Counted from the stretch's first letter, positions 40,622-63,339 are shown. The stretch is 64,000 nucleotides of DNA from an uncultured Phycisphaerales bacterium (GCA_963704405.1 OY969903.1:2948909-3012908), one strand, 5' to 3'. Made by a program: numbers and translations. The notes: generated by a model from the letters alone, not told the origin.

Positions 40622-40645
40622 GCGGCGGAAGTCACAGCTTTCGAC

Positions 40646-41634: not shown

Positions 41635-41647
41635 TTTTGGGATGGGT
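41635..41647 (+). promoter_or_regulatory. copy 4 of 13-nt motif TTTTGGGATGGGT (plus strand)
   Basis: Exact 13-mer, 187 nt upstream of ATG 41834 and in the same orientation as that gene. Confidence 0.5.
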
Positions 41648-41833
41648 GCCGCCGCAACCAGCAGGAAGAGGGAAATGTGCGAAGAGGTTCCCACATCCAG
41701 CCAAGCCACGCTCCCTTCGGCGGAAAAGGATGAGTAAAGCCGCTCTGGCGACTGACGGTGTGTGGTCAGTCGGTTTCGGACCCGATGATTCGCCGTCTAA
41801 TCCTGTGAGCTTTGTTGGTATCCGATCCTTAAG

Positions 41834-43791: not shown

Positions 43792-43805
43792 AAAGTTGAG
43801 AAACA

Positions 43806-44105
43806 ATGAAATTCGGATTTCGAAGACCATCGTTGCGAAAGAGCATTGCAGCGCGCACGTCTGTTAAAAGATACGTTCGCCATTCTCTCGGCTTCAAAGC
43901 TCCTCGTGGGTGGGGATGGCTAACCAATTCGAAAAAGGCTGCTTACAACCGGATGTATTATCGAACGACGTTCGGCTGGCAAGACTTATTCAAAATTCGA
44001 GGGCGAAGACAAGCATCGCAAGGCTGCCTTGTGACAATTATCCTCGCAGTCGGTCTTGTGTGCAGTGTTCTTGCTGGTGTTTCAATAGCTCACTTTCTCA
44101 CTTGA
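43806..44105 (+). CDS. small basic protein with C-terminal TM helix
   Basis: 99 aa. Arg/Lys-rich N-terminal part, C-terminal LVTIILAVGLVCSVLAGVSIAHFL. Confidence 0.5.
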   Translation: MKFGFRRPSLRKSIAARTSVKRYVRHSLGFKAPRGWGWLTNSKKAAYNRMYYRTTFGWQDLFKIRGRRQASQGCLVTIILAVGLVCSVLAGVSIAHFLT

Positions 44106-44247
44106 TTCGGATCATTTTAAACACTTACGCTCAGTCACAGGGAGCAACTAGACAGAGCAATCATGGACCGAGGGGTGCGGATTGCAACATCGATCGCAAA
44201 AGAACAACGAACCTCCCTCGTAACTCTAACGCAATACAGGTTTAGGA

Positions 44248-44748
44248 ATGAAAAGTGATACAACGCCTAGAGGTTGTTTAGGCTTCCTGTTCAAGCTATT
44301 CACAGGCGATGAACAAGATGAAAAGCAGGCCGCCTTCCCAAAAATCCAAATCAACAAATATTTCATCTCCGACGCCGAAGCCGACTTTTTCCGAGTTCTT
44401 ACACGCGTCGTCAGTGATCGTGGACATATCTTAGCTCAGGTGTCCCTAAAGCAACTCTTTTGGCTTCCTGGCAGAAACCAAGACACTCCCGGACGTGCGA
44501 CGTGGCAGAACAAAATAAACCAAAAAGCTGTTGATTTCGTCGTCTGTGACCCGGCCACGCTTCGACCGTTGCTTGCCATCGAATTGGATGAACCATCACA
44601 TACTCGAGCCGACCGGATCATACGAGATGAAGAATTGAAAAAAATGTTCGAGGCCGCTGGACTCGTGCTACTTCGCGAGCCCACATGCCGTACGTACGAC
44701 ACCCGGCAACTCGCACAAAGAGTATTGCCACATCTTGGCACACAATAA
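44248..44748 (+). CDS. DUF2726 domain protein (PD-(D/E)xK-like)
   Basis: FISDAEADFFRVL..ILAQVSLKQLF..VDFVVCD..LRPLLAIELDEPSH.. matches the DUF2726 pattern. Confidence 0.8.
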   Translation: MKSDTTPRGCLGFLFKLFTGDEQDEKQAAFPKIQINKYFISDAEADFFRVLTRVVSDRGHILAQVSLKQLFWLPGRNQDTPGRATWQNKINQKAVDFVVCDPATLRPLLAIELDEPSHTRADRIIRDEELKKMFEAAGLVLLREPTCRTYDTRQLAQRVLPHLGTQ

Positions 44749-44865
44749 CGATCTAGGGTTCCTGGGACTCGCGCGTCCCCGCGCGGAATAAATATCTCCA
44801 TTCCACGGCGCAACCAAGCCATTTTATACTTGCTGTATCCTCTACAATCGCGCTAGAATGGCCGC

Positions 44866-47563: not shown

Positions 47564-48181
47564 CTACGATCCTCGGCGGTGTCGCAAAATTCTCTTGTAA
47601 ACAGGCTCACCAAAGATGTTCTCTTCCAGCTTCTTCCACTGAATACGATCCAGGCTTCCAGCGGGAGCCAAGCCAAAAAAGAGCGCGCGTTTTGCCAAGC
47701 CCGTATAACTCAAGGTTGTTCGCGTATCGTGTTTAAGGTGAACAATAGTTTCCGGACAGCATTTGCCGGCCGTTATTCCTTTGGCGGCGAGGGCGTCGAT
47801 AAAATCCTGTTCGGGGAAAATGAATTCCGCGGCGAAGATCTCCGCGCCAATCTCGATATGCTCGTTGATATTACGATCGCTGCAACACGCTACCGGACGA
47901 TCACGATCAACAAGATGGTGTTTGAGTTCGTGCGCCATCGTAAAAACCATGGGATCTTCCGGCAAGCGTTTCGCCAGCATCACGGTTGCGCCAAGGTCGT
48001 CGTTAAAATAAGCGCCGCGAACCTCGCGAAGCCGGTGCGGCCATAGATCGATTTTAATCTTTTGATCACGATAAATTGTTCGGAGATGTGACTTCTGCAC
48101 ACGGGGAGATTCAAGGCCATATTTAGCACGCATTTCCCGTGCGAGTTCTTTCATTTCGTTGTAATACACGGATCGGTTCAC
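47564..48181 (-). CDS. ImmA/IrrE-family zinc metallopeptidase (CapP/ImmA-like)
   Basis: HELKHHLVD (HExxH) in a 205-aa protein, immediately downstream of an XRE repressor gene. Confidence 0.85.
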   Translation of the reverse strand: MNRSVYYNEMKELAREMRAKYGLESPRVQKSHLRTIYRDQKIKIDLWPHRLREVRGAYFNDDLGATVMLAKRLPEDPMVFTMAHELKHHLVDRDRPVACCSDRNINEHIEIGAEIFAAEFIFPEQDFIDALAAKGITAGKCCPETIVHLKHDTRTTLSYTGLAKRALFFGLAPAGSLDRIQWKKLEENIFGEPVYKRILRHRRGS

Positions 48182-48211
48182 GCTTGACTCCTCCCTGGAT
48201 GGGGCGGGCTT

Positions 48212-48595
48212 TCATCCCTGCGGTCTCCCTACCTTTTTCTTAACGGCCATACTTCCCATCAGGGCACGAGCCCTGCGATATTCAGCGTATTTCTGCAACT
48301 CATCAATGTCATCTTCCGGCAGGTCTTTCGCAGCTCGAAGCAACGCCGTGACCTTTGACTCCGCCGGTTCATCATCTTTTGGAAAAAACTCGAGGATGGA
48401 CACTCTAAAAAACCGACTTAATGCGTCGAGGTCTTCTAGGCTGGGGCGATATGTGCCTGTTTCCCAACGAGAAACTGTATTCCCGGCCATCTTGAGCGAT
48501 TTCGCAAGCTCCTCTTGCGAAATGCCGTTTCCGCCGTAGTTGTTACGTAACTGGCGAATCCGTTCACCGACGTAACGAATAAGTTCCATTCGCAT
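48212..48595 (-). CDS. XRE-family helix-turn-helix transcriptional regulator (CapH/ImmR-like)
   Basis: ISQEELAKSLKMAGNTVSRWETGTYRPSLEDLDAL is a canonical Cro/C1-type HTH. Confidence 0.85.
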   Translation of the reverse strand: MRMELIRYVGERIRQLRNNYGGNGISQEELAKSLKMAGNTVSRWETGTYRPSLEDLDALSRFFRVSILEFFPKDDEPAESKVTALLRAAKDLPEDDIDELQKYAEYRRARALMGSMAVKKKVGRPQG

Positions 48596-48708: not shown

Positions 48709-49191
48709 GTGACTGATACCAGCGACGCAAGCGAAAAGAAGGAACACCATCACAGGGTGCGTATCCACATTGACGAGAAATCCCACGAATCGCCCAATCC
48801 GACTACGGGCGAAGCACTTTATGCGCTCGGCGAGGTGAAGCATGGTCTCGAACTCTTCAGGGAGGTTGATGGCGACCGAGAAGATCCCGGCGTCGATAGA
48901 GGGCCGGAGACCATTCATCTGAAAGAAGACGAACATTTCCACAGCGGCCCCCCAAGGGAAATCACCATAATCGTAAATACCCGCAAGAAGAAAGTGACAG
49001 CCACAAAGTTGGCGTTTATCGAAGTGGTAGCTCTCGCCTATCAGCCTGTGCGTACGGACCCCAAGGTTCTTTACACGGTTACGTACGGACGCGGCCCTAA
49101 AGCGAACCCCGAAGGCGAACTCCTCGCGGGTCACACGGTCAAGCTAAAAGATGGGATGGTGTTTCTTGTCACAGAAACCGATAAATCATAG
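48709..49191 (+). CDS. multiubiquitin domain protein (tandem beta-grasp)
   Basis: GTG start with an aaggaga RBS. Two repeats of the pattern I..D....S..PTTG..LY..G (HIDEKSHESPNPTTGEALYALGEV and IIVNTRKKKVTATKLAFIEVVALAY), as in the Multi_ubiq family. No C-terminal Gly (ends TETDKS). Confidence 0.78.
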   Translation: MTDTSDASEKKEHHHRVRIHIDEKSHESPNPTTGEALYALGEVKHGLELFREVDGDREDPGVDRGPETIHLKEDEHFHSGPPREITIIVNTRKKKVTATKLAFIEVVALAYQPVRTDPKVLYTVTYGRGPKANPEGELLAGHTVKLKDGMVFLVTETDKS

Positions 49192-50353
49192 CGATGATTT
49201 GAAGCGGCTTCGAGCCGAAGGCTACAACATTGAGATCAAAGCGGGATTCCTTCTCGTGAAGGAAGTGCCATATCTGAACTCAAAGAAAGAAGTAAAACGT
49301 GGGATTCTCGTGGACAAGCTCAAGCTTGCCGGCGACGTAGCGGAACCTCCGGAAGATCACGTCGCGCACTTCATGGGAGAATACCCTTGCCATCAGGATG
49401 GCAAGCCAATCGAACAGATCGGCAACAGCAGCCAACAGCGCCCATTGGCCGAAGGTGTAACGATCGATCATACATTTTCCGCCAAGCCTCAGCCGGCGGG
49501 AAAATATACGGATCACCATGCAAAGGTCGCAGCCTATTGCTCGATTCTCGGCGGTCCGGCAAGAACGGTCGAACCATCAGCCACTGCCAGAACTCATTCC
49601 CCTGTGACGCCTGAAGATGAAGACAAATCAATATTCAATTACATCGACACAGCATCCAGCCGCGCTGAAATAGGCATCGCAACTCAGAAACTCGCGCTCG
49701 AAAAAGTTGCGATTATTGGCCTTGGCGGAACGGGCTCTTATGTCTTGGATCTGGTGGCAAAGACGCCAATCCGTGAAATTCACCTCTTTGACAACGATGT
49801 TCTCCTAACACACAACGCTTTCCGAGCGCCTGGCGCTCCGTCGCTAGAAGAACTGCGGGGCAAGCCGCGCAAAGTTAATTACTTTGCGGCGATTTACTCT
49901 AAAATGCATCGGGGCATCATCGCTCACGCTACACATATTGATGCGGATAACATCGATCTGTTGCGAGGAATGAAGTTTGTGTTCTTGTGTTTTGATGATG
50001 GCATGGCGAAACGCTACGTCATTGATAAGTTGCACGAGTTCGATATTCCCTTCGTTGACGTTGGCATGGGAATCTACATGGGCGAGGAATCGCTCGGGGG
50101 GCATCTGAGAGTGACAACAAGCACCCCCCGAAAGCGCGACCATGTACCGGCGCGAATTCCGCTGTCCGAAGGCGCCGGAGAAAACGAGTATTCATCCAAC
50201 ATCCAAATTGCTGATCTGAACGCCCTGAACGCTGCATTGGCCGTCGGCCGCTGGAAGAAGCTCTTCGGCTTCTATGCCGACTACAACAATGAACATCACG
50301 TCACATACGGCATTGAGCTTCAGTCGCTCACCAGGGCCGAGGAGCAGCCATGA
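49151..50353 (+). CDS. ThiF/E1-like adenylyltransferase with approx 170-aa N-terminal domain in the position of an E2-like module
   Basis: VAIIGLGGTGSYVLDLVAKTPIREIHLFDNDVLLTHNAFRAPGA is the ThiF/MoeB/E1 Rossmann motif. The N-terminal domain has a Cys in YPCHQDG. Overlaps the neighbouring genes at both ends. Confidence 0.85.
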   Translation: MGWCFLSQKPINHSDDLKRLRAEGYNIEIKAGFLLVKEVPYLNSKKEVKRGILVDKLKLAGDVAEPPEDHVAHFMGEYPCHQDGKPIEQIGNSSQQRPLAEGVTIDHTFSAKPQPAGKYTDHHAKVAAYCSILGGPARTVEPSATARTHSPVTPEDEDKSIFNYIDTASSRAEIGIATQKLALEKVAIIGLGGTGSYVLDLVAKTPIREIHLFDNDVLLTHNAFRAPGAPSLEELRGKPRKVNYFAAIYSKMHRGIIAHATHIDADNIDLLRGMKFVFLCFDDGMAKRYVIDKLHEFDIPFVDVGMGIYMGEESLGGHLRVTTSTPRKRDHVPARIPLSEGAGENEYSSNIQIADLNALNAALAVGRWKKLFGFYADYNNEHHVTYGIELQSLTRAEEQP

Positions 50354-50808
50354 AGCGACAGACGATACTTACGCACCGATTTGTAGAATCGGCACCGGAT
50401 GTGCTTGAGGAGGGCATATTATACGTTTCGATCGAGTACACGACGGCAATACACAAATGCTGTTGCGGCTGCGGAAGAGAAGTGGTTACGCCGATAACAC
50501 CCACCGACTGGAAGCTCATTTTTGATGGTAAAACTATCTCGCTTGAACCATCAATCGGTAATTGGAGCTTGCCGTGCCAGTCGCACTATTGGATTAGGAA
50601 CAATCAGGTTCGATGGGCCGGAAAGTGGACGCAAGAACGGATTCGGACTGGCAGAGCGCACGACGCCAAGGTGAAACAAACATATTTCAGCCGAGCCAGA
50701 ACCCAAGATTCCGAGATCGCGGCAGGTGTGACGGCTGGGGATAATATTAGCGACAAGCCGCGTAAGGGTATCTTGGCGACGCTAAAGCACCTGTTCAAAC
50801 GCAGATAA
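50350..50808 (+). CDS. DUF6527 family protein (Cys-rich, probable Zn-binding)
   Basis: LEEGILYVSIEYTTAIHKCCCGCGREVVTPITPTDWKL..SLEPSIGNWSLPCQSHYWI matches my recollection of DUF6527. ATGA overlap with the E1 stop. Confidence 0.72.
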   Translation: MKRQTILTHRFVESAPDVLEEGILYVSIEYTTAIHKCCCGCGREVVTPITPTDWKLIFDGKTISLEPSIGNWSLPCQSHYWIRNNQVRWAGKWTQERIRTGRAHDAKVKQTYFSRARTQDSEIAAGVTAGDNISDKPRKGILATLKHLFKRR

Positions 50809-51346: not shown

Positions 51347-51670
51347 TTACGCGATTCCGTCCAGGCCTTTACGTTCCACTAATGAGAGCAGCTTGAGTGA
51401 CGGACCCGCAGGTTTCTTTTCACCGCGTTCCCACTTGCTGACAGAATCCTTCGTGACGTTCAGATACGTCGCGAATACGGATTGGCTCACATCCTCGCGC
51501 TCACGCAGCGCCCGGATTTCATAGGCGCTGAATTCATGGATCGGCGTCAGGCACGAAGTATCAAATCGCCGCATGGTCTGCCGGTCAATGATGCCAACGC
51601 TGTGCAGACCGCTCGCGATCTCGTGGATCGCCGCTTTCACGTCGCTCTTGTACTTCTTAGTCTTTTTCAT
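51347..51670 (-). CDS. HTH antitoxin (HigA/MqsA-like, XRE-type)
   Basis: IRALREREDVSQSVFATYLNVTKDSVSKWERGEKKPAGPSLKLL. Overlaps the upstream toxin gene by 14 nt. Confidence 0.8.
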   Translation of the reverse strand: MKKTKKYKSDVKAAIHEIASGLHSVGIIDRQTMRRFDTSCLTPIHEFSAYEIRALREREDVSQSVFATYLNVTKDSVSKWERGEKKPAGPSLKLLSLVERKGLDGIA

Positions 51671-52058
51671 AACACTTCACCTCCACAAATTCATTACTCT
51701 CAAGCAGTTTTTTCACCTCTTCGTCCGAAGCAGCCAACAGGATCTGAGCCAGCTCCTTGAAATCACGTTCGTCGCTTTCGTCGATATTCGCCTGCTCGCT
51801 TTTGGCAAATCCATAGACGAAGAACGACCTCTCGCCACGGCAGAACAGAATGATTGAGCGATATCCGCCCGACTTGCCTTCATTAGGCCGGGCGATTCGC
51901 TGCTTGATCACACCACCGCCGTAATCCGCATCTACCAGCCCACGTTCAGCGTCCTTCACCGCTTTGCAAAGGCTGGCGTCGGCGATGCGTTCCTTACGGG
52001 CGAATTTTGCGAAACGTTTGCTCTTAAAAACTCGCACGCAGGGCCTTTTCGCTTCCAT
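51657..52058 (-). CDS. RelE/ParE-superfamily toxin (HigB-2-like; toxin encoded first)
   Basis: FKSKRFAKFARKERI..VDADYGGGVIKQRIARPNEGKSGGYRSIILFCRGERSFFVYGFAKSE resembles the COG4737-type RelE-like toxin. Gene order is toxin then antitoxin. Confidence 0.72.
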   Translation of the reverse strand: MEAKRPCVRVFKSKRFAKFARKERIADASLCKAVKDAERGLVDADYGGGVIKQRIARPNEGKSGGYRSIILFCRGERSFFVYGFAKSEQANIDESDERDFKELAQILLAASDEEVKKLLESNEFVEVKCYEKD

Positions 52059-52225: not shown

Positions 52226-55066
52226 CTACTCAATCCGTCGTCGCGCTTTAACGAGATCTGCTAGCAGTTGCTCGAACACAGCTACATCAGCATTCGGCTC
52301 TGCATACATCACGAAAAGCATCATAGCAGTGACTAACTGTGGAAGTTCACGGACGATCTTCTGTTTCAAGTCGTCAATGAACACTTCGATCCGCTCGTGG
52401 GCTGAAGAATCCGTCGGAGCTTCGCCCGCGATGAGTTGCTCCGCCTTGGCTTGGAGTGATGTCGAAGCAAATGACTCCGCGGTTCGGTATGCTTCAATGA
52501 TGTCACCTCCATTAAGCAGTGACTGCACAACTTCGGGCAAATTGGCGGGCTTTAACGGGCGGCGTGTGCTCGTCCTTAATCCTCTTAGTTCGGGTACTGT
52601 ACCGCTCAATTGTGCGCAAGTTTCAAGAATGGTTTCTGTCGAGATTTCTGCGGCTCCAAACCATTCTCTTTGATCCATCTTTTGCCATATTGCGGCGGCG
52701 GTTCGCACCTCATAGCAGGTCCGCACGACGGTTTGGCCTAACGGCGTCAAGGTCAGCGGACTGTTCATTGTCGCCAGCGGCTCGCCGAATTCAGTGCCGG
52801 CGAGCATTAACGCCTCGTAATTCGTCTGTGCATCACTGCCCAAACCACCCTTTACCGCATCGCCGAACATGCGGCCGCGGTAGTCATCCAGAATGCCGTC
52901 GGTTCCTGGCCACCGCAGGAGGACTTTGTCGAAAGATGCGAAAAGATGGGCGGCGGCTAGAGTGCGTTCGGGCTTCGACAAGCCGTCATCCAGTGACGAC
53001 CGAACGACTGACCTGTCAGGATCGAGCAAATGTTCGAGAAACACTGCGTGCGATTGGATGTTCTTCCCGTCAGAGTCCGTCATCTCGAACGGCGTATACA
53101 TTTGGACAACATCGCCGACAAGGTGTCCCGATGTTCGCCCGCCGCGCCCGGCGATATTGCGCATTAACAGAGGGGACATTGCGGCTTGTGTTTCCTCTTC
53201 CCAGTCATAGTGACTTGGGGAAGCGATGACTACCGATCGGAACGGAAAATCAGAACCCTCCGCAAGCGTTGTAGTGGCATACACAATTGGCACTGCGGCC
53301 GCTTGGAATGCATCTTCGAGAGATCGGCGGACTTCTGCCGGCAATGCTGCGTTGTGATAGGCCACGCCACGTTCCAAGCAGTAATTCAGCAGGCTGAGAT
53401 ACGGATACTTTGTTTCAATGAGTTTGCGAACTGTTGTTGTCTCCGCTGCGATGGAACCAACTGAACGGCGTTCCGCAGCAATGACGGCAAGTTCGCGAGT
53501 CTGTTTTCGAGATGAGCAGAAGACAACTACCGGTCCGTTCGACCGCTCGTGCCATCGTTCGGCGTACCAAGCAACTCGACCGCCCAACGGGTTTTTCAGC
53601 TGCTGAGCAATGCCGTGCTCATTTTTCGCGGTTGGCCAAGCTGGCATTTTCGGACAGAAATCCTCCAAGACTGTGATATTGGAATCTGATACATCCTCCA
53701 GATCGGTAACCACAAAAAGCTTGTCCTTCGGATGCCAGTAGGCCGGATACAGTGGGTTTGGCCGCCAGCTGCCAACAACCAAGCTGGACGATGGAACTTT
53801 AAGCCACTTCGCCAAATCATTGATGTTCGATATGACCGCCGACATACCGAATACGCGAGAAGGATGACCGGTATTGGCCTGCTCCAGCAGCACACGAGCA
53901 ATCAGACACTCGTAAAAAGCACCGCGACCTGCCTGAGAGAGCATATGCAATTCGTCAAAGACGATCGTACGGACACGTTGCAGTAGTTTCGGCTCAGCGA
54001 GGAGGAGTGAGTCGAGTTTTTCAGGCGTCGCAACAAGGACTGCCTTTCCGGCTTTGAGATACTGTGAATCGACCTGATCCTCGCCGTATGCGCCAACTAC
54101 CTCAATATCAGAGTCCTTCAGTCTCGTCCGCATCGTCTTTTCAACCCCGTAAGCAATTGCCTGATATGGCACGACAAAGACAGAAATGCCGGAACCTTTA
54201 GCTTCCAGCGTGAGAATGCTGACAATCTCTGCCACGAAAGTTTTTCCGCTGCTTGTCGGCGTGCAAAGTAGACCGTTCCCCACGTCGGACTTGAGCCACT
54301 GTCGGATCGCAGGTTCTTGGCTTGGCAAAAGTATCAGCCTTTGAGCGCGGGCCAGAGACCGGCGATACCATTGCGGTAGCGCAACACCCGCCACTCGGAC
54401 GACCTTCAGAAGGCTAAGTGAACCCACAAGCGGCAGTGTCTGACTTATGCGATAGCCGAGCGCCTTGTCTACAGATAATGCATGTGACGGCCGCGTGCTA
54501 ATGTCGTAGAGGCGCTCCTGCCCTTCGGTGAGATCGGACATACGGGCGCACCGCCAAGGCTTTGTGACTGCATCTGGCAGCAAAGACTTTTCCGCATCGC
54601 TTAAACGCCGGACGGCGAGGACTGCATCTAAGAAGACATCACCTGGGACTGCTACGGCAGAATGGTGCCTAGAAATACTGAGCGCAATACGTGCGGCAGC
54701 AAAATTACCACTCTGCAAATAAGCGATGCTTGCTTCACGTGCCCAATGTGCCTTGAGCGTCACGTCCTGAAGTAATTCAGCAACGAAGTACATGACTCGC
54801 GCCGCGCGTGCGATCGGTGATCGATTGTCCGTCGGCACCTTGCGTGTTGTAAGTTTAGGCAAATCGGCCCACATCGAAACGATGTTTCTCGCAGAAGCGG
54901 CAAACTGAATTAGCGTATCGCGTTTTGGCGGTTCGACGTCGTCGTACAGGAAGGATCGATAATAGCTAGCCACAAGCGATCGCTCGTGCTCAATCAATTT
55001 GTATTGCTTCTCCTTATCGAGAATGCGTTTTAGGGATTCGCTCATCAACAACGCCCCTTTCCGCAT
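52226..55066 (-). CDS. superfamily 2 DEAD/DEAH-box helicase, HamB-like
   Basis: Motif I CTPTSSGKTFVAE, motif II VFDELHML, C-terminal helicase lobe (VVFCSSRKQ..VAYHNAALP..ATTTLAEGSDFP). 946 aa. The upstream partner gene overlaps it by 22 nt. Confidence 0.85.
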   Translation of the reverse strand: MRKGALLMSESLKRILDKEKQYKLIEHERSLVASYYRSFLYDDVEPPKRDTLIQFAASARNIVSMWADLPKLTTRKVPTDNRSPIARAARVMYFVAELLQDVTLKAHWAREASIAYLQSGNFAAARIALSISRHHSAVAVPGDVFLDAVLAVRRLSDAEKSLLPDAVTKPWRCARMSDLTEGQERLYDISTRPSHALSVDKALGYRISQTLPLVGSLSLLKVVRVAGVALPQWYRRSLARAQRLILLPSQEPAIRQWLKSDVGNGLLCTPTSSGKTFVAEIVSILTLEAKGSGISVFVVPYQAIAYGVEKTMRTRLKDSDIEVVGAYGEDQVDSQYLKAGKAVLVATPEKLDSLLLAEPKLLQRVRTIVFDELHMLSQAGRGAFYECLIARVLLEQANTGHPSRVFGMSAVISNINDLAKWLKVPSSSLVVGSWRPNPLYPAYWHPKDKLFVVTDLEDVSDSNITVLEDFCPKMPAWPTAKNEHGIAQQLKNPLGGRVAWYAERWHERSNGPVVVFCSSRKQTRELAVIAAERRSVGSIAAETTTVRKLIETKYPYLSLLNYCLERGVAYHNAALPAEVRRSLEDAFQAAAVPIVYATTTLAEGSDFPFRSVVIASPSHYDWEEETQAAMSPLLMRNIAGRGGRTSGHLVGDVVQMYTPFEMTDSDGKNIQSHAVFLEHLLDPDRSVVRSSLDDGLSKPERTLAAAHLFASFDKVLLRWPGTDGILDDYRGRMFGDAVKGGLGSDAQTNYEALMLAGTEFGEPLATMNSPLTLTPLGQTVVRTCYEVRTAAAIWQKMDQREWFGAAEISTETILETCAQLSGTVPELRGLRTSTRRPLKPANLPEVVQSLLNGGDIIEAYRTAESFASTSLQAKAEQLIAGEAPTDSSAHERIEVFIDDLKQKIVRELPQLVTAMMLFVMYAEPNADVAVFEQLLADLVKARRRIE

Positions 55067-55827
55067 GCGAATGCCTTATAGTTCTCCTCGATTGAAGGCA
55101 CACGCAAATACATTCCGTGGGCGGACGGCCAGCCATCCTCCTTTAAGTTCTCCACAATTGACTCGATCTTCTTAACGCACTTGGCGTTGTCAGCAGCGTC
55201 TCCAGAAACCCCTGTGGGAATGAGATTGACCTTTGACGAGTCTTTCGGGCAGGTTCCCAGGCAATCGTTGACGCGTGGAATCAGTTTCTTCTTCTTTGCA
55301 TGCTGAAGGTCCCATTTCAAATGTTCGGCAGTCGAGGCCAGTCGCGACGTTGCGTACAGTCCTGCGAAGTCGCCCTCACAGGCACCAAAATATTGGGGAT
55401 TGTCGCGCGTGGCCTTCACCTCCTGCATGTGCAGTCGATCCTTCGTGCTGTCTTTTTTAGGCCGGAAAATGCTGATATCGACAAGCGGAAAATTCGCCGA
55501 TCCGAGCGGGTCCGGTGCACGAAAGCAATGGATGAATGGATGGCTGAATGCATCGTGTACACATCGAATGACGTAGACAGCAAACTCGGAGATCGATCCC
55601 AGCAGGCCATCACCAATGAGAGCGCCGCTGCCGGACTTGATGGTCGCCTTAACCTCAGCAGTGGTGCGGTATTTGTAGCCCGCCAGAAGATGTTCACTAA
55701 GCATCGCAATGAAATCGTCGGAGTTGGTGATATCCACCAAGACCGCCGCAGAACTGGCTTTTGAATCCCATTTGTAGCAGTTCGCCAATTTTAGATCCGT
55801 CCTTCCCCATGAGACGGCAGTCTTCAC
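55045..55827 (-). CDS. HamA-like (DUF1837-type PD-(D/E)xK) protein, partner of the helicase
   Basis: 260 aa directly upstream of, and overlapping, the helicase gene. Candidate nuclease motif D(ISIF)...QEVKAT. The assignment rests mainly on gene architecture. Confidence 0.55.
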   Translation of the reverse strand: MKTAVSWGRTDLKLANCYKWDSKASSAAVLVDITNSDDFIAMLSEHLLAGYKYRTTAEVKATIKSGSGALIGDGLLGSISEFAVYVIRCVHDAFSHPFIHCFRAPDPLGSANFPLVDISIFRPKKDSTKDRLHMQEVKATRDNPQYFGACEGDFAGLYATSRLASTAEHLKWDLQHAKKKKLIPRVNDCLGTCPKDSSKVNLIPTGVSGDAADNAKCVKKIESIVENLKEDGWPSAHGMYLRVPSIEENYKAFACGKGRC

Positions 55828-56108
55828 CAGCCGATCGCAATTTGCAACGAGCTTTCACTTGATCGCACAATTGTAACTACACTAATGCCGTCTCTCGTCC
55901 AAGTGTACTCGATCGACACCTCTGGCGCGGCGCGTCCCGTCTACAAAATCGAGGGACAATACGGCGGAGCGACGCTATCAGAAGATGGTCGAAAACTGGC
56001 TGTGCATGGCCCGCACGGCTCCGCAAGAGACAACGCCTTCTGCTTTTTCGCCAACCAATGGAACTCATCCCGTTTGACTCCGAGTCGTCAACCGGCGCAC
56101 AATGTGAA

Positions 56109-56153
56109 AATATAACGAAAACAACTTGCGTCAGATTTCATTTTCGTTATATT
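56109..56153. promoter_or_regulatory. 13-bp perfect inverted repeat (aatataacgaaaa / ttttcgttatatt) with 19-nt spacer, ending 6 nt before ATG 56160
   Basis: Read directly from the sequence. AT-rich arms in an otherwise GC-rich region, immediately upstream of the first gene of the GHKL cassette. Confidence 0.6.
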
Positions 56154-56159
56154 ACGGTA

Positions 56160-56774
56160 ATGGACAGTGTGAAGCGCGCTATCGAAGCTCTCCGACAGGC
56201 CGAAGCCAGCCTGCGGGAAATTGTAACCAAAGCGGCCACGACGGGCGACTACGGGAGCGTTGTTAAGATCGCATCGTGGGCAAGTGCGATGAGCGCGCTG
56301 CTGAAGGAGGCAGGTGTAGGTAATGGCGCCCAATCGCCGGTACCTAACCAGAAGAAGTCTCATTTTCAGGCAGGGAATTCTCAGTCACAAGCGACACCCA
56401 GGCGAACCAAACATTCCGTCGCCGATGAGTACCCCCAATTCTTCCGAAATGAAGATCAACTCATTCGTGTCGCGTGGTCGAAAAAGGAAAAAACGGAATA
56501 CCAGCATAAGGTGCCATCGCCGGTACTCAAGTTATTGGCTAAAGCGATGGCCAAAGCCGGTACAGACGGACGCATTTTTTCCACCGACCAATTTCTGCCG
56601 ATCCATGACGCCGATGGTGAGAAGATTCCAAGCTACCAAGCATATGTCGGCATTGCATTGATGAAACACGCCGGGCTGTTAGATCAGCACGGGCGTCAGG
56701 GCTATTCCATTCCTAGACTTGAAGAGTTCCAGAATGCTGTTGAGTCGGTGTGGCAGAAAGTTCCTAAACAATAA
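56160..56774 (+). CDS. hypothetical protein (204 aa), first gene of the GHKL cassette
   Basis: Start moved to ATG 56160 (MDSVKRAIEALRQAEASL..). Helical N-terminus, Gln/Ser-rich linker, C-terminal globular part. No family recognised. Confidence 0.6.
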   Translation: MDSVKRAIEALRQAEASLREIVTKAATTGDYGSVVKIASWASAMSALLKEAGVGNGAQSPVPNQKKSHFQAGNSQSQATPRRTKHSVADEYPQFFRNEDQLIRVAWSKKEKTEYQHKVPSPVLKLLAKAMAKAGTDGRIFSTDQFLPIHDADGEKIPSYQAYVGIALMKHAGLLDQHGRQGYSIPRLEEFQNAVESVWQKVPKQ

Positions 56775-56793
56775 TCATTTCGGAGGCCATATC

Positions 56794-57882
56794 ATGATTG
56801 AACCGACGTTGCTCGACAAACACGTAGTGCCAGTAGATTTCATTTCGCGAGCGGTGAAGGCAACCACCACCGTCGCCATCACCAAGCTGCTCGAAGAACT
56901 GCCGATCACGCCGGAGGATGAGTACGCCTATAACGACGACAAGCCGGAGGATGGCTGGCAAGCCGGCAAGTTCCACTGGGTGCCGGTCGGCGGTGAGCGG
57001 GGAAATGCCGGACGCATCAAACAGGCCAACCAGCCGGTCAGCCCCTTGGCCGAGCGTACCGTGAACGGCATGGAAGCCATCATTGAGATGGCCCGTCAAC
57101 GCGAGCTGCTGGCAACTCCAGACGCTCCCGCGCCAACCACTCCACGCGATGCCGTTGCGCGCTACTTCGATATTCCGGCGCTGGACCAGCTGCCCAAGCT
57201 CGACGGTTCGCCCGCTTCAAAGGCAATTCGCGCGAGAGCGCGCGACCTGGCTCGGCAACTCCGCATCCGTCTCCTCTTTGATAAGCCGTCCAAGGAATTC
57301 ACTGTTGCGATCGAGGATGATGGAATCGGTCAGCCGCCATCGCTCATCCACAGTACACTTCTTTCGCTCGGCTCTACGACCAAAGCCGACAAGTGGTATC
57401 TCATCGGCATCTTCGGCCAGGGCGGGTCGTCTGCCTATTCGGAGTGCAAATACTCGTGGTTGATCTCCCGCCGCAGCAAAGATCTCCTTCAAGGCGCGGC
57501 CGACGGCGTCGGCTGGACGATTATCAAACAGTTCTTTCCCAAAGGGCGGCGCGACGCCTATTTCGCGTACCTGGCCTGCCACCCCGATGGACGAGTGCCC
57601 TTCATCTCTGCTGGCGATGCCGAGACGGCGAAGATCCCTCACGGCACGCGCTTCGTCCACATTGACTATGACTTTGGCCGCGGAGGTTCCGCCATCACCC
57701 GCCAACTCTATACGTCAATGAATCACGTCCTTTACAACCCGGTGCTGCCATTTGAGCTGTATGTCGGCAACACCGTCGCCATTGTGAACGGCAACGGTTA
57801 TCGACTTTCCTCACTCGGATCGCGCGACACCAACCCCGCCATACTCGACAAACTCTTTCCGCCACAGCCGGTCGGCGCTTAA
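56794..57882 (+). CDS. GHKL (Bergerat-fold, HATPase_c_3-like) ATPase
   Basis: ggagg RBS, ATG 56794. N-box-like LAERTVNGMEAIIEMA, G1 box IEDDGIGQ, G2 box GIFGQGGSSAY. Ends with a double stop TAATAG. Confidence 0.72.
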   Translation: MIEPTLLDKHVVPVDFISRAVKATTTVAITKLLEELPITPEDEYAYNDDKPEDGWQAGKFHWVPVGGERGNAGRIKQANQPVSPLAERTVNGMEAIIEMARQRELLATPDAPAPTTPRDAVARYFDIPALDQLPKLDGSPASKAIRARARDLARQLRIRLLFDKPSKEFTVAIEDDGIGQPPSLIHSTLLSLGSTTKADKWYLIGIFGQGGSSAYSECKYSWLISRRSKDLLQGAADGVGWTIIKQFFPKGRRDAYFAYLACHPDGRVPFISAGDAETAKIPHGTRFVHIDYDFGRGGSAITRQLYTSMNHVLYNPVLPFELYVGNTVAIVNGNGYRLSSLGSRDTNPAILDKLFPPQPVGA

Positions 57883-57894
57883 TAGGAATCCAAC

Positions 57895-59715
57895 ATGCCA
57901 GCAATCACACAGCTCGACAAAGTGCTCGATACTTCCCTCAGCGAGGGACACGGTACGATCACGATCCGCGTGGTAGTGCTTGACAAAACTATGGCATCCG
58001 GCGCCGCGCCGAAAGCCAGCGATGCCCCACCAGTCGATGCGGAGCCTGACGAGGTTCTACCGGACACTGACAAGCGGCCAGTCTCAACCTTCATGGAAGA
58101 ACCGAAGCGCGGCAAGCAATGCTGTGTTTTTCTCATAAACGGGCAGCGCCAGCATGCATGGGATAATACCTTCATCGTGCGCGATCTTGACCTCAAATAT
58201 ATTCGCAACCGAATGATTGTGGTGGTGGATTGCGATGGGCTCAAGCCGGAGGCGATCGCGGAACTGATGCGCGGACACCGCCTTCAGTTTTACGAAGGTA
58301 CGGTTTTCTTCGCCTTGGAGCAGCGCGTCATCGCCACTCTGAAAGGCGATCCGGACCTCCGGCGCATCGAAGAGGAAGCCGAGGAAGAGATTTCCAGCCT
58401 TGATGCTGGCGACGAAGCCGTCAAACATGCGCTCGATCAACTCATCGAAGCGCATCACGACGCCGCTGCGCACGTTGATTTCGGTCAGAAGGAGGCAGGG
58501 GAAGAGAGTCGTCTCGATGCAACTGGCGGGAAGATTATTCAGCAGCAGCCAGTCGTGATCGATGCTGACCAGCCCATTGGTAAGGATGCGACCGAACCGG
58601 TGCTTCAGCTTCGACCGGAGATCACAACCATTCGCTTGAAGCCCAACGAAACGCGCAAATGCGTCATTGCGTCGCGACCGGACGCCGCATGGACGAGCGT
58701 CGAATCGCTTGGCGTGACATTCGATCCGCCGGTCAAGGAACTCAACGTCACGCGCACCGCCCAGGTGTCCGGTGAAGAGATTGCACTCAAATTCGTCCAA
58801 CCCACCGATTTCGACGACGACGAATATCCAATCGAGACCGTAATGCGCTGTACCTCGATGTTCAAGGGCCATCCCGAAGCCCGCATCCTAGAGCGCCGTG
58901 TCGTCATCACTCCCGGCAAGAAGAAGCAGTCAAAGCCCATCGTCCTGAAGGACGACCCGACCTATATACGGGTTGCAAGCCGACAACCAATTAAGCTTGT
59001 CATCGGAGGCCCAGACCTGCACGTCAAAATCAAGTGGGACGGCAAAGATGAATTGCTGGCCGGGAACCCACCGCTGTGGGCAATTAAGATCAATTGCGAA
59101 TCGCCGTCTGTTGAACCCCAATCATTCCCGACGCATCCAAACGGCGGACGCTTTGAACTGCTCATCCAAGCCACGCCAGGACTCGCTGCTGGCGAACAAC
59201 TCAAGTTCGATGTCGAGGCGGTTGGCCCTGGCAAGACTCTCTCCACCGCTTTCCTTGTCGATGTCGTTGAGCCACCCACCGCGCGCAAGGTTACGGACAA
59301 AACACCAGGCGGCGGGCAGCGCAGGCCACCCTACGAGCTGAAGTACGTCAAACGTGAGAATTGGGACAGTCCGACTTGTTGGGCACAGCCGTGGACCGGC
59401 GTCGATCCAGGATCATTCGACGCTCCCACCGCCAAGTCGCCACTGTTCATCTACATCAACCAGGATACCGACCTTCTAACGACGTACCGCGACTCTCTGC
59501 TCGCCAAAAAGCTGGCCGAGAACACGATCCAGCAGCGCATTAACAAATACACGGCACACGTCGCCTTTCACCTTTACCAGATGTACGAGAACAAAAAGCG
59601 CCGTGATGCTGATCCCGGTTATGCAAAAGACAGCGCCCAGGACGATGACGCGATCATGCGCGACGAAATTCATCGCGTGGCACGGACACTCATCAAGCTG
59701 ATGGACGTGACTTAA
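57895..59715 (+). CDS. hypothetical large protein (606 aa), third gene of the GHKL cassette
   Basis: 12 nt after the ATPase gene. Contains CCVFLINGQRQHAWDNTF.., an acidic helical linker (RRIEEEAEEEISSLDAGDE) and beta-rich middle repeats. No nuclease or other motif recognised. Confidence 0.68.
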   Translation: MPAITQLDKVLDTSLSEGHGTITIRVVVLDKTMASGAAPKASDAPPVDAEPDEVLPDTDKRPVSTFMEEPKRGKQCCVFLINGQRQHAWDNTFIVRDLDLKYIRNRMIVVVDCDGLKPEAIAELMRGHRLQFYEGTVFFALEQRVIATLKGDPDLRRIEEEAEEEISSLDAGDEAVKHALDQLIEAHHDAAAHVDFGQKEAGEESRLDATGGKIIQQQPVVIDADQPIGKDATEPVLQLRPEITTIRLKPNETRKCVIASRPDAAWTSVESLGVTFDPPVKELNVTRTAQVSGEEIALKFVQPTDFDDDEYPIETVMRCTSMFKGHPEARILERRVVITPGKKKQSKPIVLKDDPTYIRVASRQPIKLVIGGPDLHVKIKWDGKDELLAGNPPLWAIKINCESPSVEPQSFPTHPNGGRFELLIQATPGLAAGEQLKFDVEAVGPGKTLSTAFLVDVVEPPTARKVTDKTPGGGQRRPPYELKYVKRENWDSPTCWAQPWTGVDPGSFDAPTAKSPLFIYINQDTDLLTTYRDSLLAKKLAENTIQQRINKYTAHVAFHLYQMYENKKRRDADPGYAKDSAQDDDAIMRDEIHRVARTLIKLMDVT

Positions 59716-60917
59716 ATGGCGCGATGGATCAGCACGACTTCGTTAGAGGAGTGAGTCTTGCCGCGCAGTGTCGCATGCCACTTGCGATGAGGTACCTGCC
59801 TCCAAATTCGATTATCAGCGCCGATAGGTGCTTCGGCAAATCCCGCTGTTTGCATATTCTCTAGGTAGCGCGGAAGCTGTTCATCCGGACGGTTGAATGC
59901 CACCATTTGAATAACGTATCCGCCATCTTGCATGACGCGGCGGATGGCATGCAGAGTCTTCAGTGACGTGCGAAAATAATTATCGGCAGCAGACTGTCGC
60001 CGATCACCAAAGTTATAGAACGACGCGCCCTCGCCGTCATTGCATCCTGCGATCCAGTATGGAGCTGGCGTTTCACGTCGGCCATCTACTTGCCAACGAT
60101 GATAGAGCACATGTACACCTGGATAAGGCGGGCTTGTGATGACCAGAGCCGCTCGTCGCTTGTCTTCCAGAAACAGCGGCACTTGATCCAATTCGGCGGC
60201 ATCGCCATTAAATATCGTCGCTCGCCCGCCAGACTGTTCGATCCGATCAGCAAATATCTCCGATGCTCCCAGCATTTCTTCGGTCGTACTCGCCAGCTTA
60301 CGCCTGAAGTCAGACAGCGGCGTATGACGCTCTCGGCCGTCCAAGGCCCATTGACTTACTCGGAGGACGACGCACCGTGCGAAGTCCTGGGCGTTCCGCG
60401 TCGGTAAATCGGCAATAGCCGAAAGAGCAACGGCGACTGCCTTCTTTATGAAGCGAGCTTTGACTAGCGATAGGTTTTTCGTCTTGTCAACATCGATGAA
60501 CGCGACAAGTTCATCAGCGGACCGGCCGTAGGTAAACCCAGGCACATCTTCCACCGCCCATCGCCTAATCATGCGACTTTCGGTGAGCGTCAGACTTGTA
60601 GTTTTGACTTTGGTGATGAATGCTGCAAGCGAATTTAAGTCATTGCCGACAACGTGGCGACCGGCAACAACTCCTTCGACGACGGCGGTCCCTCCCCCCA
60701 TGTACGGGTCCAGAACTAGGTCTCCTGGTTTAGAGAAACAAGCAATAGCGGCAGCAGCAAAACGGGGCGAGAATCGCGCTGGATAACGATAGAAGTTATG
60801 TGTCCAGCCCGTCACCGGCTTACGGTCTTTAGCTGCCTCGGCCAAAACCGAAAAAGCTTCGGCTGATATTTCGTCGGCCTGGTCTAAGGGAACATGACTT
60901 CCGTGTCGTGTACTCAT
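59712..60917 (-). CDS. DNA methyltransferase (amino-MTase; motif I before SPPY motif IV)
   Basis: LVLDPYMGGGTAVVEG (AdoMet motif I-like) at approx aa 70 and ALVITSPPYPGVH (motif IV; the SPPY variant is frequent in N4-cytosine enzymes) at approx aa 265. Its stop codon overlaps the stop of the convergent 606-aa gene. Confidence 0.85.
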   Translation of the reverse strand: MSTRHGSHVPLDQADEISAEAFSVLAEAAKDRKPVTGWTHNFYRYPARFSPRFAAAAIACFSKPGDLVLDPYMGGGTAVVEGVVAGRHVVGNDLNSLAAFITKVKTTSLTLTESRMIRRWAVEDVPGFTYGRSADELVAFIDVDKTKNLSLVKARFIKKAVAVALSAIADLPTRNAQDFARCVVLRVSQWALDGRERHTPLSDFRRKLASTTEEMLGASEIFADRIEQSGGRATIFNGDAAELDQVPLFLEDKRRAALVITSPPYPGVHVLYHRWQVDGRRETPAPYWIAGCNDGEGASFYNFGDRRQSAADNYFRTSLKTLHAIRRVMQDGGYVIQMVAFNRPDEQLPRYLENMQTAGFAEAPIGADNRIWRQVPHRKWHATLRGKTHSSNEVVLIHRAI

Positions 60918-60945: not shown

Positions 60946-61154
60946 TCATCCATGCGTAGGCCGTTCCATGCGACGGGTTGACGGCTGGTTGGTCACGTTC
61001 GCAGCGAGATACTCATCGAGCGCCCAGCGGACCACAGTGGCAGCCGATGTTCGGCGCTCTGCGCGATTGCTGCAACCTGGCGCCTTTGATCGTCACCCAA
61101 TGTGATCGTCAATCGCTCAGATTTCCCCGGATGATCGTTTTCAGTTTGCTTCAT
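60946..61154 (-). CDS. ribbon-helix-helix (CopG/Arc-like) protein, frame broken near 61050-61058
   Basis: Not in the ORF track (each piece is under 60 aa). MKQTENDHPGKSERLTITLGDDQRRQVAAIAQSA joins RTSAATVVRWALDEYLAANVTNQPSTRRMERPTHG-stop after a 1-nt shift, giving a beta-strand plus two helices typical of RHH. Ends 28 nt before the MTase start. Confidence 0.6.
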
Positions 61155-61744: not shown

Positions 61745-62359
61745 ATGAAAATGACGGTTGAGCGCCAGATTGTTGAGATTCCCGAGAACCAGATCTCCAC
61801 GAAGCGGGGATTCCCGGTTTACCGCACCAATCCAAGTGTGCCGGCAACGAATGGTCTGCCGACACGGACGAAGCGCATCAACGTGCCTGGCGGCCGTGGT
61901 TCCGTCCTCATTGACAACTCCACCGGCGAATTGAAGGGTATCGGGGGAATGGGATTCTGGTGGGAAGAGGAAGTCGATACCACCCGCTTCGTCAAGCTGT
62001 TCCTCGACGGCATCAAACAAGCCGCTGGACTTTCCAAGACCGGCATCCAGGTCTTCGAACTCGTCTACCACGAAATGCGGGCCAATCCCGGCAAGGATGA
62101 AATCAAACTCAATCAGTATGTGGCCAAGGATCACGGCATCAGCGACCGCACCTATCAGCGCGGCGTGCGGGAATTACTCGAAAAGCAATTTCTCTACCGC
62201 AGCCCGAGCGATGGCGTGTTCTTCGTCAACATCCGCTTCATGTTCAACGGCGACCGCCTCGCCTTCGTCAAATCCTATCACCTGAAGGATGCGAGCCGTC
62301 AGCAGGAATTGCCGCTGATGGATGTCACGCCCCTCCCCGTTCCTGCCGATTCAGAATAG
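61745..62359 (+). CDS. RepL-like winged-helix replication/maintenance protein
   Basis: FVKLFLDGIKQAAGLSKTGIQVFELVYHEM.....VAKDHGISDRTYQRGVRELLEKQFLYRS...GVFFVNIRFMFNGD follows the RepL-type pattern. The second ATG (61751) has better spacing from the ggagg RBS. Confidence 0.55.
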   Translation: MKMTVERQIVEIPENQISTKRGFPVYRTNPSVPATNGLPTRTKRINVPGGRGSVLIDNSTGELKGIGGMGFWWEEEVDTTRFVKLFLDGIKQAAGLSKTGIQVFELVYHEMRANPGKDEIKLNQYVAKDHGISDRTYQRGVRELLEKQFLYRSPSDGVFFVNIRFMFNGDRLAFVKSYHLKDASRQQELPLMDVTPLPVPADSE

Positions 62360-62673: not shown

Positions 62674-63339
62674 CTATTTCGCCGCGGTTTGACGAATGAC
62701 GCGGCGCTTCGCCGCTTCGGGCAGAATCTCCCGGAAGATCTGATCCACTTCCTCGGCGGCTTCCCGGGCACGCGATCCCATATTCCACACAACTGCCCCC
62801 TGCCCTGGCGCATCGGCATAAATCTGGCGCAGGATCATGGGCCGCGATGCCAGCGGCAGGTTGAGCGCCGCCGCTGCATCCCGCATGTCTTGGGTGAGTC
62901 GATAATTCTTGCCCACCATGCTGAGCACGATAATGGCCTTGGGCAAACCCGCCCGAATGTCCTGGGACACCCGCAGTACCTCCGTCGCCTTGGCAAGCGC
63001 CCTCACCTCCAGCATCGACGCCTTGCAGGGCACGATGGCCAGATCAGCGCGAAGCAATAGCGCCCGGCTGGTTTCGGTCTGGCTGCCGGGTCCATCGGCG
63101 ATCACGAAGTCGGTATCGGCGTTGAGGCTCGGAAGTTCATTCAGGATTACGTCGGGACTGTCGAGGCGAACGGCTTTCACCTCCGGCACCGCCTCGCGAA
63201 TCCATTCCGAACTACTCTGCTGTGTGTCGCAATCGGCAAGGGTCACGCGGTGGCCCTGCTCGTGCAGCCATGCTGCCAGATGCACGGCGAACGTCGATTT
63301 ACCCACGCCCCCTTTGGAATTTGCGACCACGATGATCAT
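62674..63339 (-). CDS. parA: ParA-family partition ATPase
   Basis: Deviant Walker A MIIVVANSKGGVGKSTFAVHLA. 221 aa (type Ib size). Confidence 0.92.
   Translation of the reverse strand: MIIVVANSKGGVGKSTFAVHLAAWLHEQGHRVTLADCDTQQSSSEWIREAVPEVKAVRLDSPDVILNELPSLNADTDFVIADGPGSQTETSRALLLRADLAIVPCKASMLEVRALAKATEVLRVSQDIRAGLPKAIIVLSMVGKNYRLTQDMRDAAAALNLPLASRPMILRQIYADAPGQGAVVWNMGSRAREAAEEVDQIFREILPEAAKRRVIRQTAAK

Follow-up and report, generated by a model that had tools for sequence, protein, structure and literature searches.

GHKL (Bergerat-fold) ATPases of the MORC and paraMORC type were predicted to act in prokaryotic restriction-modification (R-M) systems (Iyer, Abhiman & Aravind 2008, PMC2292703), and GHKL relatives often carry or partner with nucleases (PMC2292703; VcSduA Shedu, PMC12137116). 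Here we examine a 64,000-nucleotide (nt) stretch of DNA from an uncultured Phycisphaerales bacterium (GCA_963704405.1 OY969903.1:2948909-3012908; 'the window' refers to this whole stretch), which carries at positions 56160-59715 three genes that we call A, B and C, the second of them encoding a predicted GHKL ATPase, followed by a convergent DNA methyltransferase gene and a small ribbon-helix-helix (RHH) gene. On balance, the sequence favours reading these genes as one self-contained, mobile, R-M-like module made up of a split GHKL effector, a methyltransferase and two regulators, with a presumed role in defence. The module looks like a variant of the paraMORC type and appears to be undescribed as an R-M-type defence system without a recognisable nuclease; no description of it was found in our literature searches. 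Its features, in window coordinates, are:

56109-56153, no strand assigned: operator-like perfect inverted repeat directly before gene A
56160-56774, plus strand: gene A, 204 amino acids (aa), with an internal start in the open reading frame (ORF) 56058-56774
56794-57882, plus strand: gene B, 362 aa, with an internal start in ORF 56719-57882
57895-59715, plus strand: gene C, 606 aa, ORF 57895-59715
59712-60917, minus strand: DNA methyltransferase gene, 401 aa, convergent to C
60946-61154, minus strand: small RHH gene upstream of the methyltransferase gene, split by a 1-nt frameshift

The ORF table agrees with the initial annotation of this region, which had described three co-directional genes: A, B and C are all intact, lie on the same strand and are separated by gaps of 19 nt (A-B) and 12 nt (B-C), with a Shine-Dalgarno-like GGAGG (B) or AGGA (C) about 8 nt before the ATG. 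Clustered at 90% identity, their homologues form 610 (B), 489 (C) and 209 (A) clusters, with identities mostly of 45-94% and unchanged length; we therefore take the three to be real genes and not chance ORFs. The homologues are all labelled 'hypothetical' and come with no precomputed Pfam domain; the closest relatives of the window proteins are found in metagenome-assembled genomes (MAGs) of Phycisphaerales and other Planctomycetota.

How does this locus compare with the described systems? With paraMORC and MORC it shares a HATPase_c_3-type GHKL ATPase, a mobile operon containing a DNA methyltransferase, and a domain in the position of the S5 transducer. It differs in that the superfamily II (SF-II) helicase, Vsr, restriction endonuclease (REase)-fold, TIR or HxH partners that define paraMORC1-5 (PMC2292703) are missing, the ATPase is divided between two genes, no S5 fold can be demonstrated in C, and C has two immunoglobulin (Ig)-like domains and a helical hairpin undescribed for paraMORC families. 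BREX is alike in that a methyltransferase marks self DNA and an ATPase acts without a recognisable nuclease, so that a replication block without obvious cleavage would be expected; however, the module has only two effector genes, contains no homologue of PglX, PglZ, BrxC, BrxL, BrxA or BrxB by PADLOC, and its ATPase is of the GHKL type whereas that of BREX is AAA+/P-loop. Type II R-M systems with a controller (C) protein resemble it in layout, with convergent R and M units each placed after a small DNA-binding gene, a palindromic operator over the 'R' promoter, and an N6/N4 (SPPY) methyltransferase. In contrast to these systems, the 'R' part of the module is not a recognisable endonuclease, its methyltransferase regulator is an RHH protein, and the putative controller A is a 204-aa protein of novel fold where C proteins are helix-turn-helix (HTH) proteins of about 80 aa. 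Fused homologues of B-C adjoin sspA/B/D or dndB genes, where SspE, SspFGH or DndFGH would normally sit, but the window itself holds no phosphorothioation (PT) genes and PADLOC finds no similarity of B-C to SspE, SspFGH or DndFGH. Finally, VcSduA Shedu and CapK/CapS are also GHKL modules of bacterial immunity (the GHKL part regulating a nuclease in VcSduA and acting in CapK as kinase of a DNA-binding repressor), but the module lacks a DUF4263 PD-(D/E)xK domain, a STAS domain and any sequence or fold match to them. GHKL-Shedu (VcSduA) was rejected as an identity on the missing DUF4263 PD-(D/E)xK domain, and CapK/CapS because there is no STAS match in Pfam, A has no significant fold match in the PDB, and B is fused to C in relatives.

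These comparisons draw on PADLOC-DB v2.0, which includes models for BREX, DISARM, Dnd/Ssp, Hma, Mza and MADS and covers models up to 2023. Neither B nor C has a PADLOC match at E<=0.1, the one match to A, to E2 (E=0.0075), is spurious, and the methyltransferase is matched by generic MTase_II models and weakly by mad2 (6e-5). The signature proteins PglZ/BrxC, DrmA/B, HmaA-C, MzaA-E, Mad1-8 and DndFGH/SspE/SspFGH give no match in A, B or C, which rules out BREX, DISARM, Hma, Mza, MADS, Dnd and Ssp as identities within these models. Across Pfam, PADLOC, NCBIfam, PHROGs and the PDB, A and C are unnamed and B reaches only a sub-threshold match to HATPase_c_3, in keeping with the earlier statement that the genes correspond to no named defence system. 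Searches with the family alignments and with the fused relatives likewise gave no named system.

The part of the module closest to known biochemistry is B. It carries all four GHKL motifs, plus an N-terminal strap before the ATP-binding domain. The three motifs first noticed by eye (ERTVNGMEA, DDGIGQ and GIFGQGGSS) are all present and invariant in an alignment of 40 homologues, and a G3 motif can now be added. The N-box (E87 and N91 in ERTVNGMEA, or ExxxN) is invariant both among the 40 homologues and in 25/25 members of a wider superfamily alignment (n=25) that combines split forms, methyltransferase-linked fusions and PT-linked fusions. G1 (D175-G-I-G179) and G2 (G205..G208-Q-G-G211) are invariant in the 40-homologue alignment, and in G3 (G284-T285) the threonine is kept in >=90% of these close homologues; residues D175, G177, G179, G205, G210, G211 and G284 are each found in 25/25 superfamily members, where K197 is invariant as well. 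Judged by its sequence, B is thus shown to hold a GHKL (Bergerat-fold) ATP-binding domain with the complete set of catalytic motifs, and we predict an ATPase and not a kinase because the ExxxN general base is present. Searched against the PDB, the B family profile matches the HtpG/Hsp90 N-domain (E=8.5e-4) and MORC4 (0.02) over the G1-G2 region. In Pfam, PF13589 (HATPase_c_3) is matched by 29 of 40 B members (best 1.3e-4) and the histidine-kinase family PF02518 (HATPase_c) by 4 of 40; window B alone scores 16.1 bits against HATPase_c_3, below threshold, while a fused relative, P0471, exceeds the gathering score of the same family (29.9 bits against a cutoff of 25).

Fused relatives of this kind also reveal what C is to B. 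An exhaustive search of 1.84 billion representatives with the C profile returns a small, isolated family of 359 matches, many of them fragments. Roughly ten of these matches are proteins of 750-916 aa that are colinear with B+C: their C-terminal halves align with C and their N-terminal halves carry B-like GHKL motifs (ERITNxxDA, DxGIGQ and GxYGHGGSS). The colinear fusion in relatives shows B and C to be two halves of a single polypeptide. More distant fused homologues, 804-806 aa long, occur in one further locus (L007) and on plasmids of Ensifer and Devosia. In the 805-aa Ensifer protein, residues 5-311 are matched to B (hhalign probability 99.1%, E=1.8e-18) and residues 362-468 to the N-domain of C (74-184; probability 88.6%, E=2.6e-6), again in colinear order. 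The loci of three fused proteins are:

L040 (P0471 locus): a 114-aa first gene, a fused 907-aa GHKL-C protein, a convergent N6_N4 methyltransferase and a 48-aa gene
L044, Ensifer adhaerens pC, NZ_CP101520.1 99642-114418: fused 805-806 aa GHKL+C-like protein beside sspA/B/D
L045, Devosia neptuniae plasmid, NZ_CP104964.1 511725-526507: fused 805-806 aa GHKL+C-like protein beside sspA/B/D

PADLOC identifies the neighbours in the Ensifer and Devosia loci as SspD (E=1.9e-116), SspB (1.5e-112) and SspA (4.5e-69). The superfamily thus sits in the position of a restriction partner beside at least two self-marking machineries, and no other observation argues as strongly for B-C being the effector of a system that tells self from non-self by DNA modification. 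The Ensifer and Devosia loci hold a candidate for a new restriction partner of Ssp phosphorothioation, distinct from SspE and SspFGH. An identity with SspFGH was rejected for these relatives, since SspF carries a Walker A motif and SspH resembles FtsK, neither of them being GHKL (PMC8092258), and PADLOC gives no matches.

Two other proteins were seen in the Ensifer and Devosia loci: a second GHKL-like protein of 776-786 aa, annotated as a 'sensor histidine kinase' and matching PADLOC REase_II models, and an unannotated protein of 635-680 aa; together with the fused protein, these two flank sspA/B/D. In L007 (4390-7904), a DndB homologue (PADLOC E=1.1e-112) overlaps the start of the 804-aa fused GHKL+C-like gene, which lies directly upstream of an A-less B-C-methyltransferase cassette, placing two paralogous GHKL effectors in tandem.

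We now consider how the module is kept together. In the contexts of B homologues (n=42 loci, with A, B, C and the methyltransferase mapped by tblastn), B and C lie side by side wherever the locus is neither truncated at a contig end nor a remnant, and A-B-C, or at least B-C, is kept in essentially every locus with enough flank. The methyltransferase gene is linked to B-C in about 30 of the 42 loci, at a distance of 0-2.5 kb and nearly always convergent; the remaining loci are cut by contig ends or are remnants. The proposal of a three-gene cassette therefore stands as regards conserved synteny, and falls short in that the unit also takes in the convergent methyltransferase and the RHH gene. 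Hosts come from at least five phyla: Planctomycetota, Acidobacteriota, Verrucomicrobiota (Methylacidiphilum), Pseudomonadota (alpha-, gamma- and deltaproteobacteria) and Rokubacteria. Flanking genes change from one locus to the next, which shows the module to move as a unit; in relatives they include Cas12 with Cas1-Cas4/Cas2, AbiEii, a ThsB-type TIR protein with a caspase-like peptidase, Eco57I-type R-M genes, RES-Xre toxin-antitoxin pairs, a resolvase, an integrase and a terminase-small-subunit region. No near DNA match was found in plasmids, and no protein match in phages or in viral contigs.

The methyltransferase itself matches PF01555 (N6_N4 methyltransferase) with E=3.9e-12, over residues 39-96 only, and the PADLOC MTase_II model with E=5.9e-18. 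Motif I (DPYMGGG, around aa 70) comes before motif IV (SPPY, around aa 272), an order permuted relative to PF01555, and SPPY is present in 30/30 matches long enough to reach motif IV. SPP[YF] favours N4-methylcytosine over N6-methyladenine as the product, though not decisively. The best PDB match is an N4-cytosine methyltransferase (E=1e-4), and we predict an N4-cytosine or N6-adenine enzyme. Its stop codon overlaps that of C within TTAA. The methyltransferase is co-inherited with B-C, and its identity tracks that of B across loci, at about 65-75% where B is about 70% identical and 38-54% where B is about 50% identical.

A small RHH gene usually stands before the methyltransferase gene across loci, and intact homologues of 59-67 aa (..ERLTITL..ATVIRWALDEY..) are found at this position in three relatives (L001, L004 and L006). 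In the window the gene has a 1-nt frameshift (GCGGCA > GCGCA-like), with frames 1 and 0 together reconstituting the protein; this could be a real inactivation, deregulating the methyltransferase, or an assembly error. The RHH protein is likely a regulator of the methyltransferase. Frameshifts are also seen in four loci from MFD-series MAGs (L022, L034, L037 and L039). We take these MAGs to be long-read assemblies in which frameshifts may be sequencing errors, and the apparent decay of B and methyltransferase genes there is not used as evidence.

At the other end of the module, gene A is preceded by a perfect 13-nt inverted repeat, AATATAACGAAAA-N19-TTTTCGTTATATT (56109-56153), which brackets a -35-like TTGCGT (56126-56131) and overlaps a -10-like TATATT (56148-56153), with the ATG of A 6 nt further on. 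Its 12-mer has no other site at <=1 mismatch in the window. An equivalent palindrome lies at about -50 to -8 from the start of A in more than 20 loci from several phyla, with the order arm, TTG(A/C), arm with TATA(T/C)T, and then 6-10 nt to the start codon being conserved. The arms co-vary between loci (ATAGACCGAAA/TTTCGGTCTAT, ATATAGCGAAA/TTTCGCTATA, also ATAGAGCGAAA), and the palindrome is absent from loci without A. No Shine-Dalgarno sequence precedes gene A, and its mRNA appears to be leaderless or nearly so in most loci across phyla.

The AlphaFold2 (AF2) model of A (predicted local distance difference test, pLDDT, 86) opens with a helical hairpin (2-50); a disordered, variable linker joins it to a conserved alpha/beta domain at the C-terminus, of the form beta3-alpha...alpha-beta2-alpha with the invariant beta-hairpin QHGRQGYS. 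Foldseek gives no significant fold match for this model in the PDB or BFVD, the weak top matches being winged-helix proteins (TubR, Sso10a, PadR and Cul1-WHB), and no Pfam family is found in 39 A members. Residues E113, H116, H177 and R179 are invariant. A is also the variable gene of the cassette: many loci lack it or have another gene in its place, yet keep B-C. In a clade of 50% identity its place is taken by a 370-400 aa protein with, by eye, an RHH-like N-terminus and a winged-HTH-like C-terminus (no meaningful Pfam or PADLOC match for the two members searched), and in L035 and L040 by a helical protein of 86-114 aa. A palindrome over the promoter that is present only together with A, the weak winged-helix likeness and the variability of this first gene lead us to regard A as probably the controller and autorepressor of the A-B-C operon.

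In three independent loci (L012 7295-7994, L021 7337-7980 and L025 1210-1898), the place of A is held by a MazE/AbrB-type antitoxin (VapB, confirmed by Pfam) and a PIN-domain VapC. The pair lies directly upstream of B, which is 52-71% identical to that of the window.

For C, the evidence comes from an AF2 model (pLDDT 63.6, predicted template-modelling score 0.26) and from conservation. The model has an N-domain (about 8-150) built from five beta-strands plus two helices, then a long acidic helix (153-190) that leads into a disordered linker. Two beta-sandwiches of Ig-like form follow (236-340 and 358-458, pLDDT about 80-88); after them come a W-rich segment that is conserved yet poorly modelled (463-524, QRRPPY...W...W) and, at the C-terminus, a helical hairpin (525-605). 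Foldseek with the full model returns tandem-Ig matches only, and profile searches find no PDB or Pfam sequence match for C or the fused family. The C positions kept in at least 23 of the 25 superfamily members are N82-G83-Q84, R129, a few Leu, Pro, Gly and Trp residues, Y552, H559, E591 and R594; G83-Q84 and R129 are superfamily-invariant, and N82 is found in 23/25. The N-domain sits where a GHKL transducer would, and its invariant NGQ loop and R129 would fit such a role. A and C define new protein families.

Several further readings of C were tried. An S5/transducer homology to MutL, suggested by eye from 'FLINGQR' and 'VVVDCDGL..GSRHQF', is unsupported: hhalign of the N-domain against E. coli MutL is not significant, and PDB profiles give no match to MutL or MORC either. 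A Toprim reading of 'DCDG' fails because the N-domain is modelled as a beta-meander followed by helices, not as a Rossmann-like alpha/beta fold, and because the motif is lost in fused relatives. The HxxxH (H555/H559) and HH (187/188) motifs were rejected as metal or nuclease sites, being missing from some fused relatives; all three motifs of the window family, DCDG, HH and HxxxH, are not conserved there.

Taken together, these observations suggest the following picture of how the module could work. There would be two convergent operons, operator/promoter-A-B-C and RHH-methyltransferase. The methyltransferase would mark host DNA, and B-C would act as the effector on unmarked DNA. On binding ATP, B would dimerise, and the N-domain of C would serve as the transducer, its NGQ loop and R129 sensing the gamma-phosphate of the B-bound ATP; together with the coiled coil and C-terminal hairpin of C this would close a clamp of the MORC/MutL/Hsp90 type on DNA. 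Rather than cutting, the clamp would block replication or transcription of unmodified DNA or recruit a host nuclease, with a BREX-like outcome. A would bind the palindrome and repress A-B-C, the RHH protein would autoregulate the methyltransferase, and the two regulators together would give a timing in which the methylase comes before the effector, as in C-protein R-M systems. For the action of B-C, the non-cutting clamp seems the most likely because no catalytic nuclease constellation is conserved; the specific non-nucleolytic step we offer as a tentative proposal, with the chances lying against it. In its widest form, with B-C a nuclease-free, MORC-like, ATP-driven clamp that loads on unmarked DNA and silences or immobilises it, and the whole superfamily a reader-effector for both methylation and phosphorothioation, the proposal is unlikely.

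A number of observations weigh against this picture and the module reading behind it. All components are unusually conserved (65-75% across phyla), whereas the specificity of classical R-M systems diversifies rapidly. B resembles GHKL proteins of solved structure only weakly (E about 1e-3), and over the G1-G2 region alone. The S5/transducer fold of the C N-domain is not demonstrated, as AF2 pLDDT there is about 60-70 and Foldseek is swamped by the Ig domains; C moreover has about 150 conserved but unmodelled residues, and the absence of a recognisable nuclease is negative evidence. A consensus scan finds a second promoter-like site upstream of the operator, at 56074-56103, and initiation there would place the palindrome within the transcript, where it could form an RNA hairpin. 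Lastly, binding of the palindrome by A is deduced from their co-occurrence, and its actual binding partner could be the RHH protein or a host factor.

The first and main alternative is that the module does cut: B-C or A would hold a novel or divergent endonuclease site, as in the MutL C-terminal domain, and cleave unmodified DNA in an ATP-dependent, methylation-sensitive manner. The R-M-like architecture and the methyltransferase linkage are clear, and the nucleases found with GHKL relatives elsewhere (PMC2292703; PMC12137116) speak for such a site, as do the conserved yet unmodelled segment 463-524 of C, its near-invariant Y552, H559, E591 and R594, the invariant residues E113, H116, H177 and R179 of A, and the second GHKL protein matching REase_II models in the Ssp-linked loci. 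However, no nuclease-like D/E/K/H constellation outside the ATPase motifs is kept across the 25-member superfamily alignment; fused relatives have lost DCDG and HxxxH; sister clades do without A; and searches of Pfam, PADLOC, NCBIfam and the PDB match none of the three proteins to a nuclease family. Among the classical Type II endonuclease types (PD-(D/E)xK, HNH, GIY-YIG and PLD), none was recognised in the three proteins. Inside the conserved module, none of the 42 loci has an SF-II helicase or a nuclease of the Vsr, REase-fold, TIR or HxH kind, and no helicase signature is conserved; the HamB helicase of the window is part of the neighbouring Hachiman pair, which is not retained along with the module in other loci. 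The remark in the initial annotation that a nuclease or helicase partner is not recognisable thus holds for A, B, C and the conserved module as a whole. Given both sets of observations, we consider a hidden nuclease doubtful.

The second alternative is that the module is selfish, an addiction or epigenetic element in which the methyltransferase is the antidote and B-C a toxin to cells losing methylation, so that the island is stabilised and protection from phage is incidental. Consistent with this, the compact unit moves across unrelated contexts and phyla at very high identity, it is carried on integrative or plasmid-like elements, VapBC lies directly upstream of B in three loci, and its tight two-regulator layout is like that of R-M systems capable of post-segregational killing. 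For R-M systems, though, addiction and defence are not mutually exclusive; the neighbours that recur around the module (CRISPR-Cas, AbiE, Thoeris-like TIR, Hachiman, R-M) fit defence islands, and no matches occur in phage or viral contig collections. We judge this alternative improbable. As for the third, in which A and B would be a sensor/regulator pair (a GHKL kinase and its DNA-binding substrate, CapK/CapS-like) controlling C and/or the methyltransferase, the order of a small DNA-binding-like gene followed by a 360-aa GHKL gene recalls CapS/CapK (PMC13373217) and A has a conserved operator, but we hold it to be very improbable, given that in the relatives seen B is fused to C and never to A, that B-C is retained in many loci where A is missing or replaced, that B matches HATPase_c_3/Hsp90/MORC over HATPase_c (29 against 4 of 40 members) and has the ATPase-type ExxxN general base, and that A has no STAS fold or PDB fold match although CapS structures exist.

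With these alternatives weighed, the R-M-like module built around a split GHKL effector is the reading that we retain, and the original suggestion of a MORC/paraMORC-like, R-M-type conflict system is essentially supported, with defence as the presumed function.

We turn finally to the surroundings of the module in the window, where it lies between the Hachiman pair and a segment with RepL and ParA genes. The other features of the region are:

30577-37180: complete Type I R-M operon with HsdM (800 aa, unusually long), HsdS (406 aa) and HsdR (997 aa)
39695-40621: amidoligase-2 protein, in the mobile-element region 39695-46482
41834-43501: kinase-like 555-aa protein
44866-46482: large serine recombinase
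47564-48595, minus strand: regulatory or toxin-antitoxin-like pair
48709-50808: three genes encoding multiubiquitin (PF14452), DUF6791-ThiF E1-like and DUF6527 proteins, upstream of the Hachiman pair
51347-52058, minus strand: regulatory or toxin-antitoxin-like pair
52226-55827, minus strand: Hachiman pair, a 946-aa HamB and a 260-aa partner
61745-62359: RepL-like protein
62674-63339: ParA

The flanks given in the initial annotation, a Hachiman-like pair and a DNA methyltransferase, are both confirmed, the former by a PADLOC match to HamB with E=3.9e-52. The 260-aa partner of HamB has no match to HamA models, Pfam or NCBIfam and may be a divergent or novel HamA. The three-gene cassette at 48709-50808 encodes a ubiquitin-like conjugation system, a type that has been linked to phage defence. 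Of the two gene pairs that flank it, one resembles, by eye only, an XRE-HTH protein (127 aa) with an ImmA/IrrE-like HExxH protein (205 aa), and the other is HigB/HigA-like (133 and 107 aa). The view that the module resides in a plasmid-like element is right as far as the RepL-like, ParA and serine recombinase genes go, but the element appears to be chromosomally integrated, because proteins identical to those of the window sit on a 4.89-Mb contig. There is no tRNA gene within the window. The region as a whole suggests an integrated island, like a plasmid or an integrative and conjugative element, packed with defence systems.

If functional as proposed, the module would achieve modification-based discrimination with a compact set of genes (two for the effector, one methyltransferase and two regulators) and without a nuclease or a helicase. 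It would offer a tractable case for modification-based immunity without DNA cutting, which is an open question for BREX, and would let the 2008 prediction that MORC-like GHKL ATPases act in R-M conflicts be tested experimentally. The phosphorothioation genes beside some relatives point to a modular effector able to read more than one kind of epigenetic mark. About 84% of sspBCD loci have neither SspE nor SspFGH (PMC8092258), and if the clamp reading is true, the superfamily would become a candidate restriction partner for some of these; it would likewise be a bacterial functional counterpart of the MORC-mediated silencing of invasive DNA in eukaryotes. Soil phyla that have received little study (Planctomycetota, Acidobacteriota and Verrucomicrobiota) carry the system in abundance, and current defence-annotation tools do not see it.

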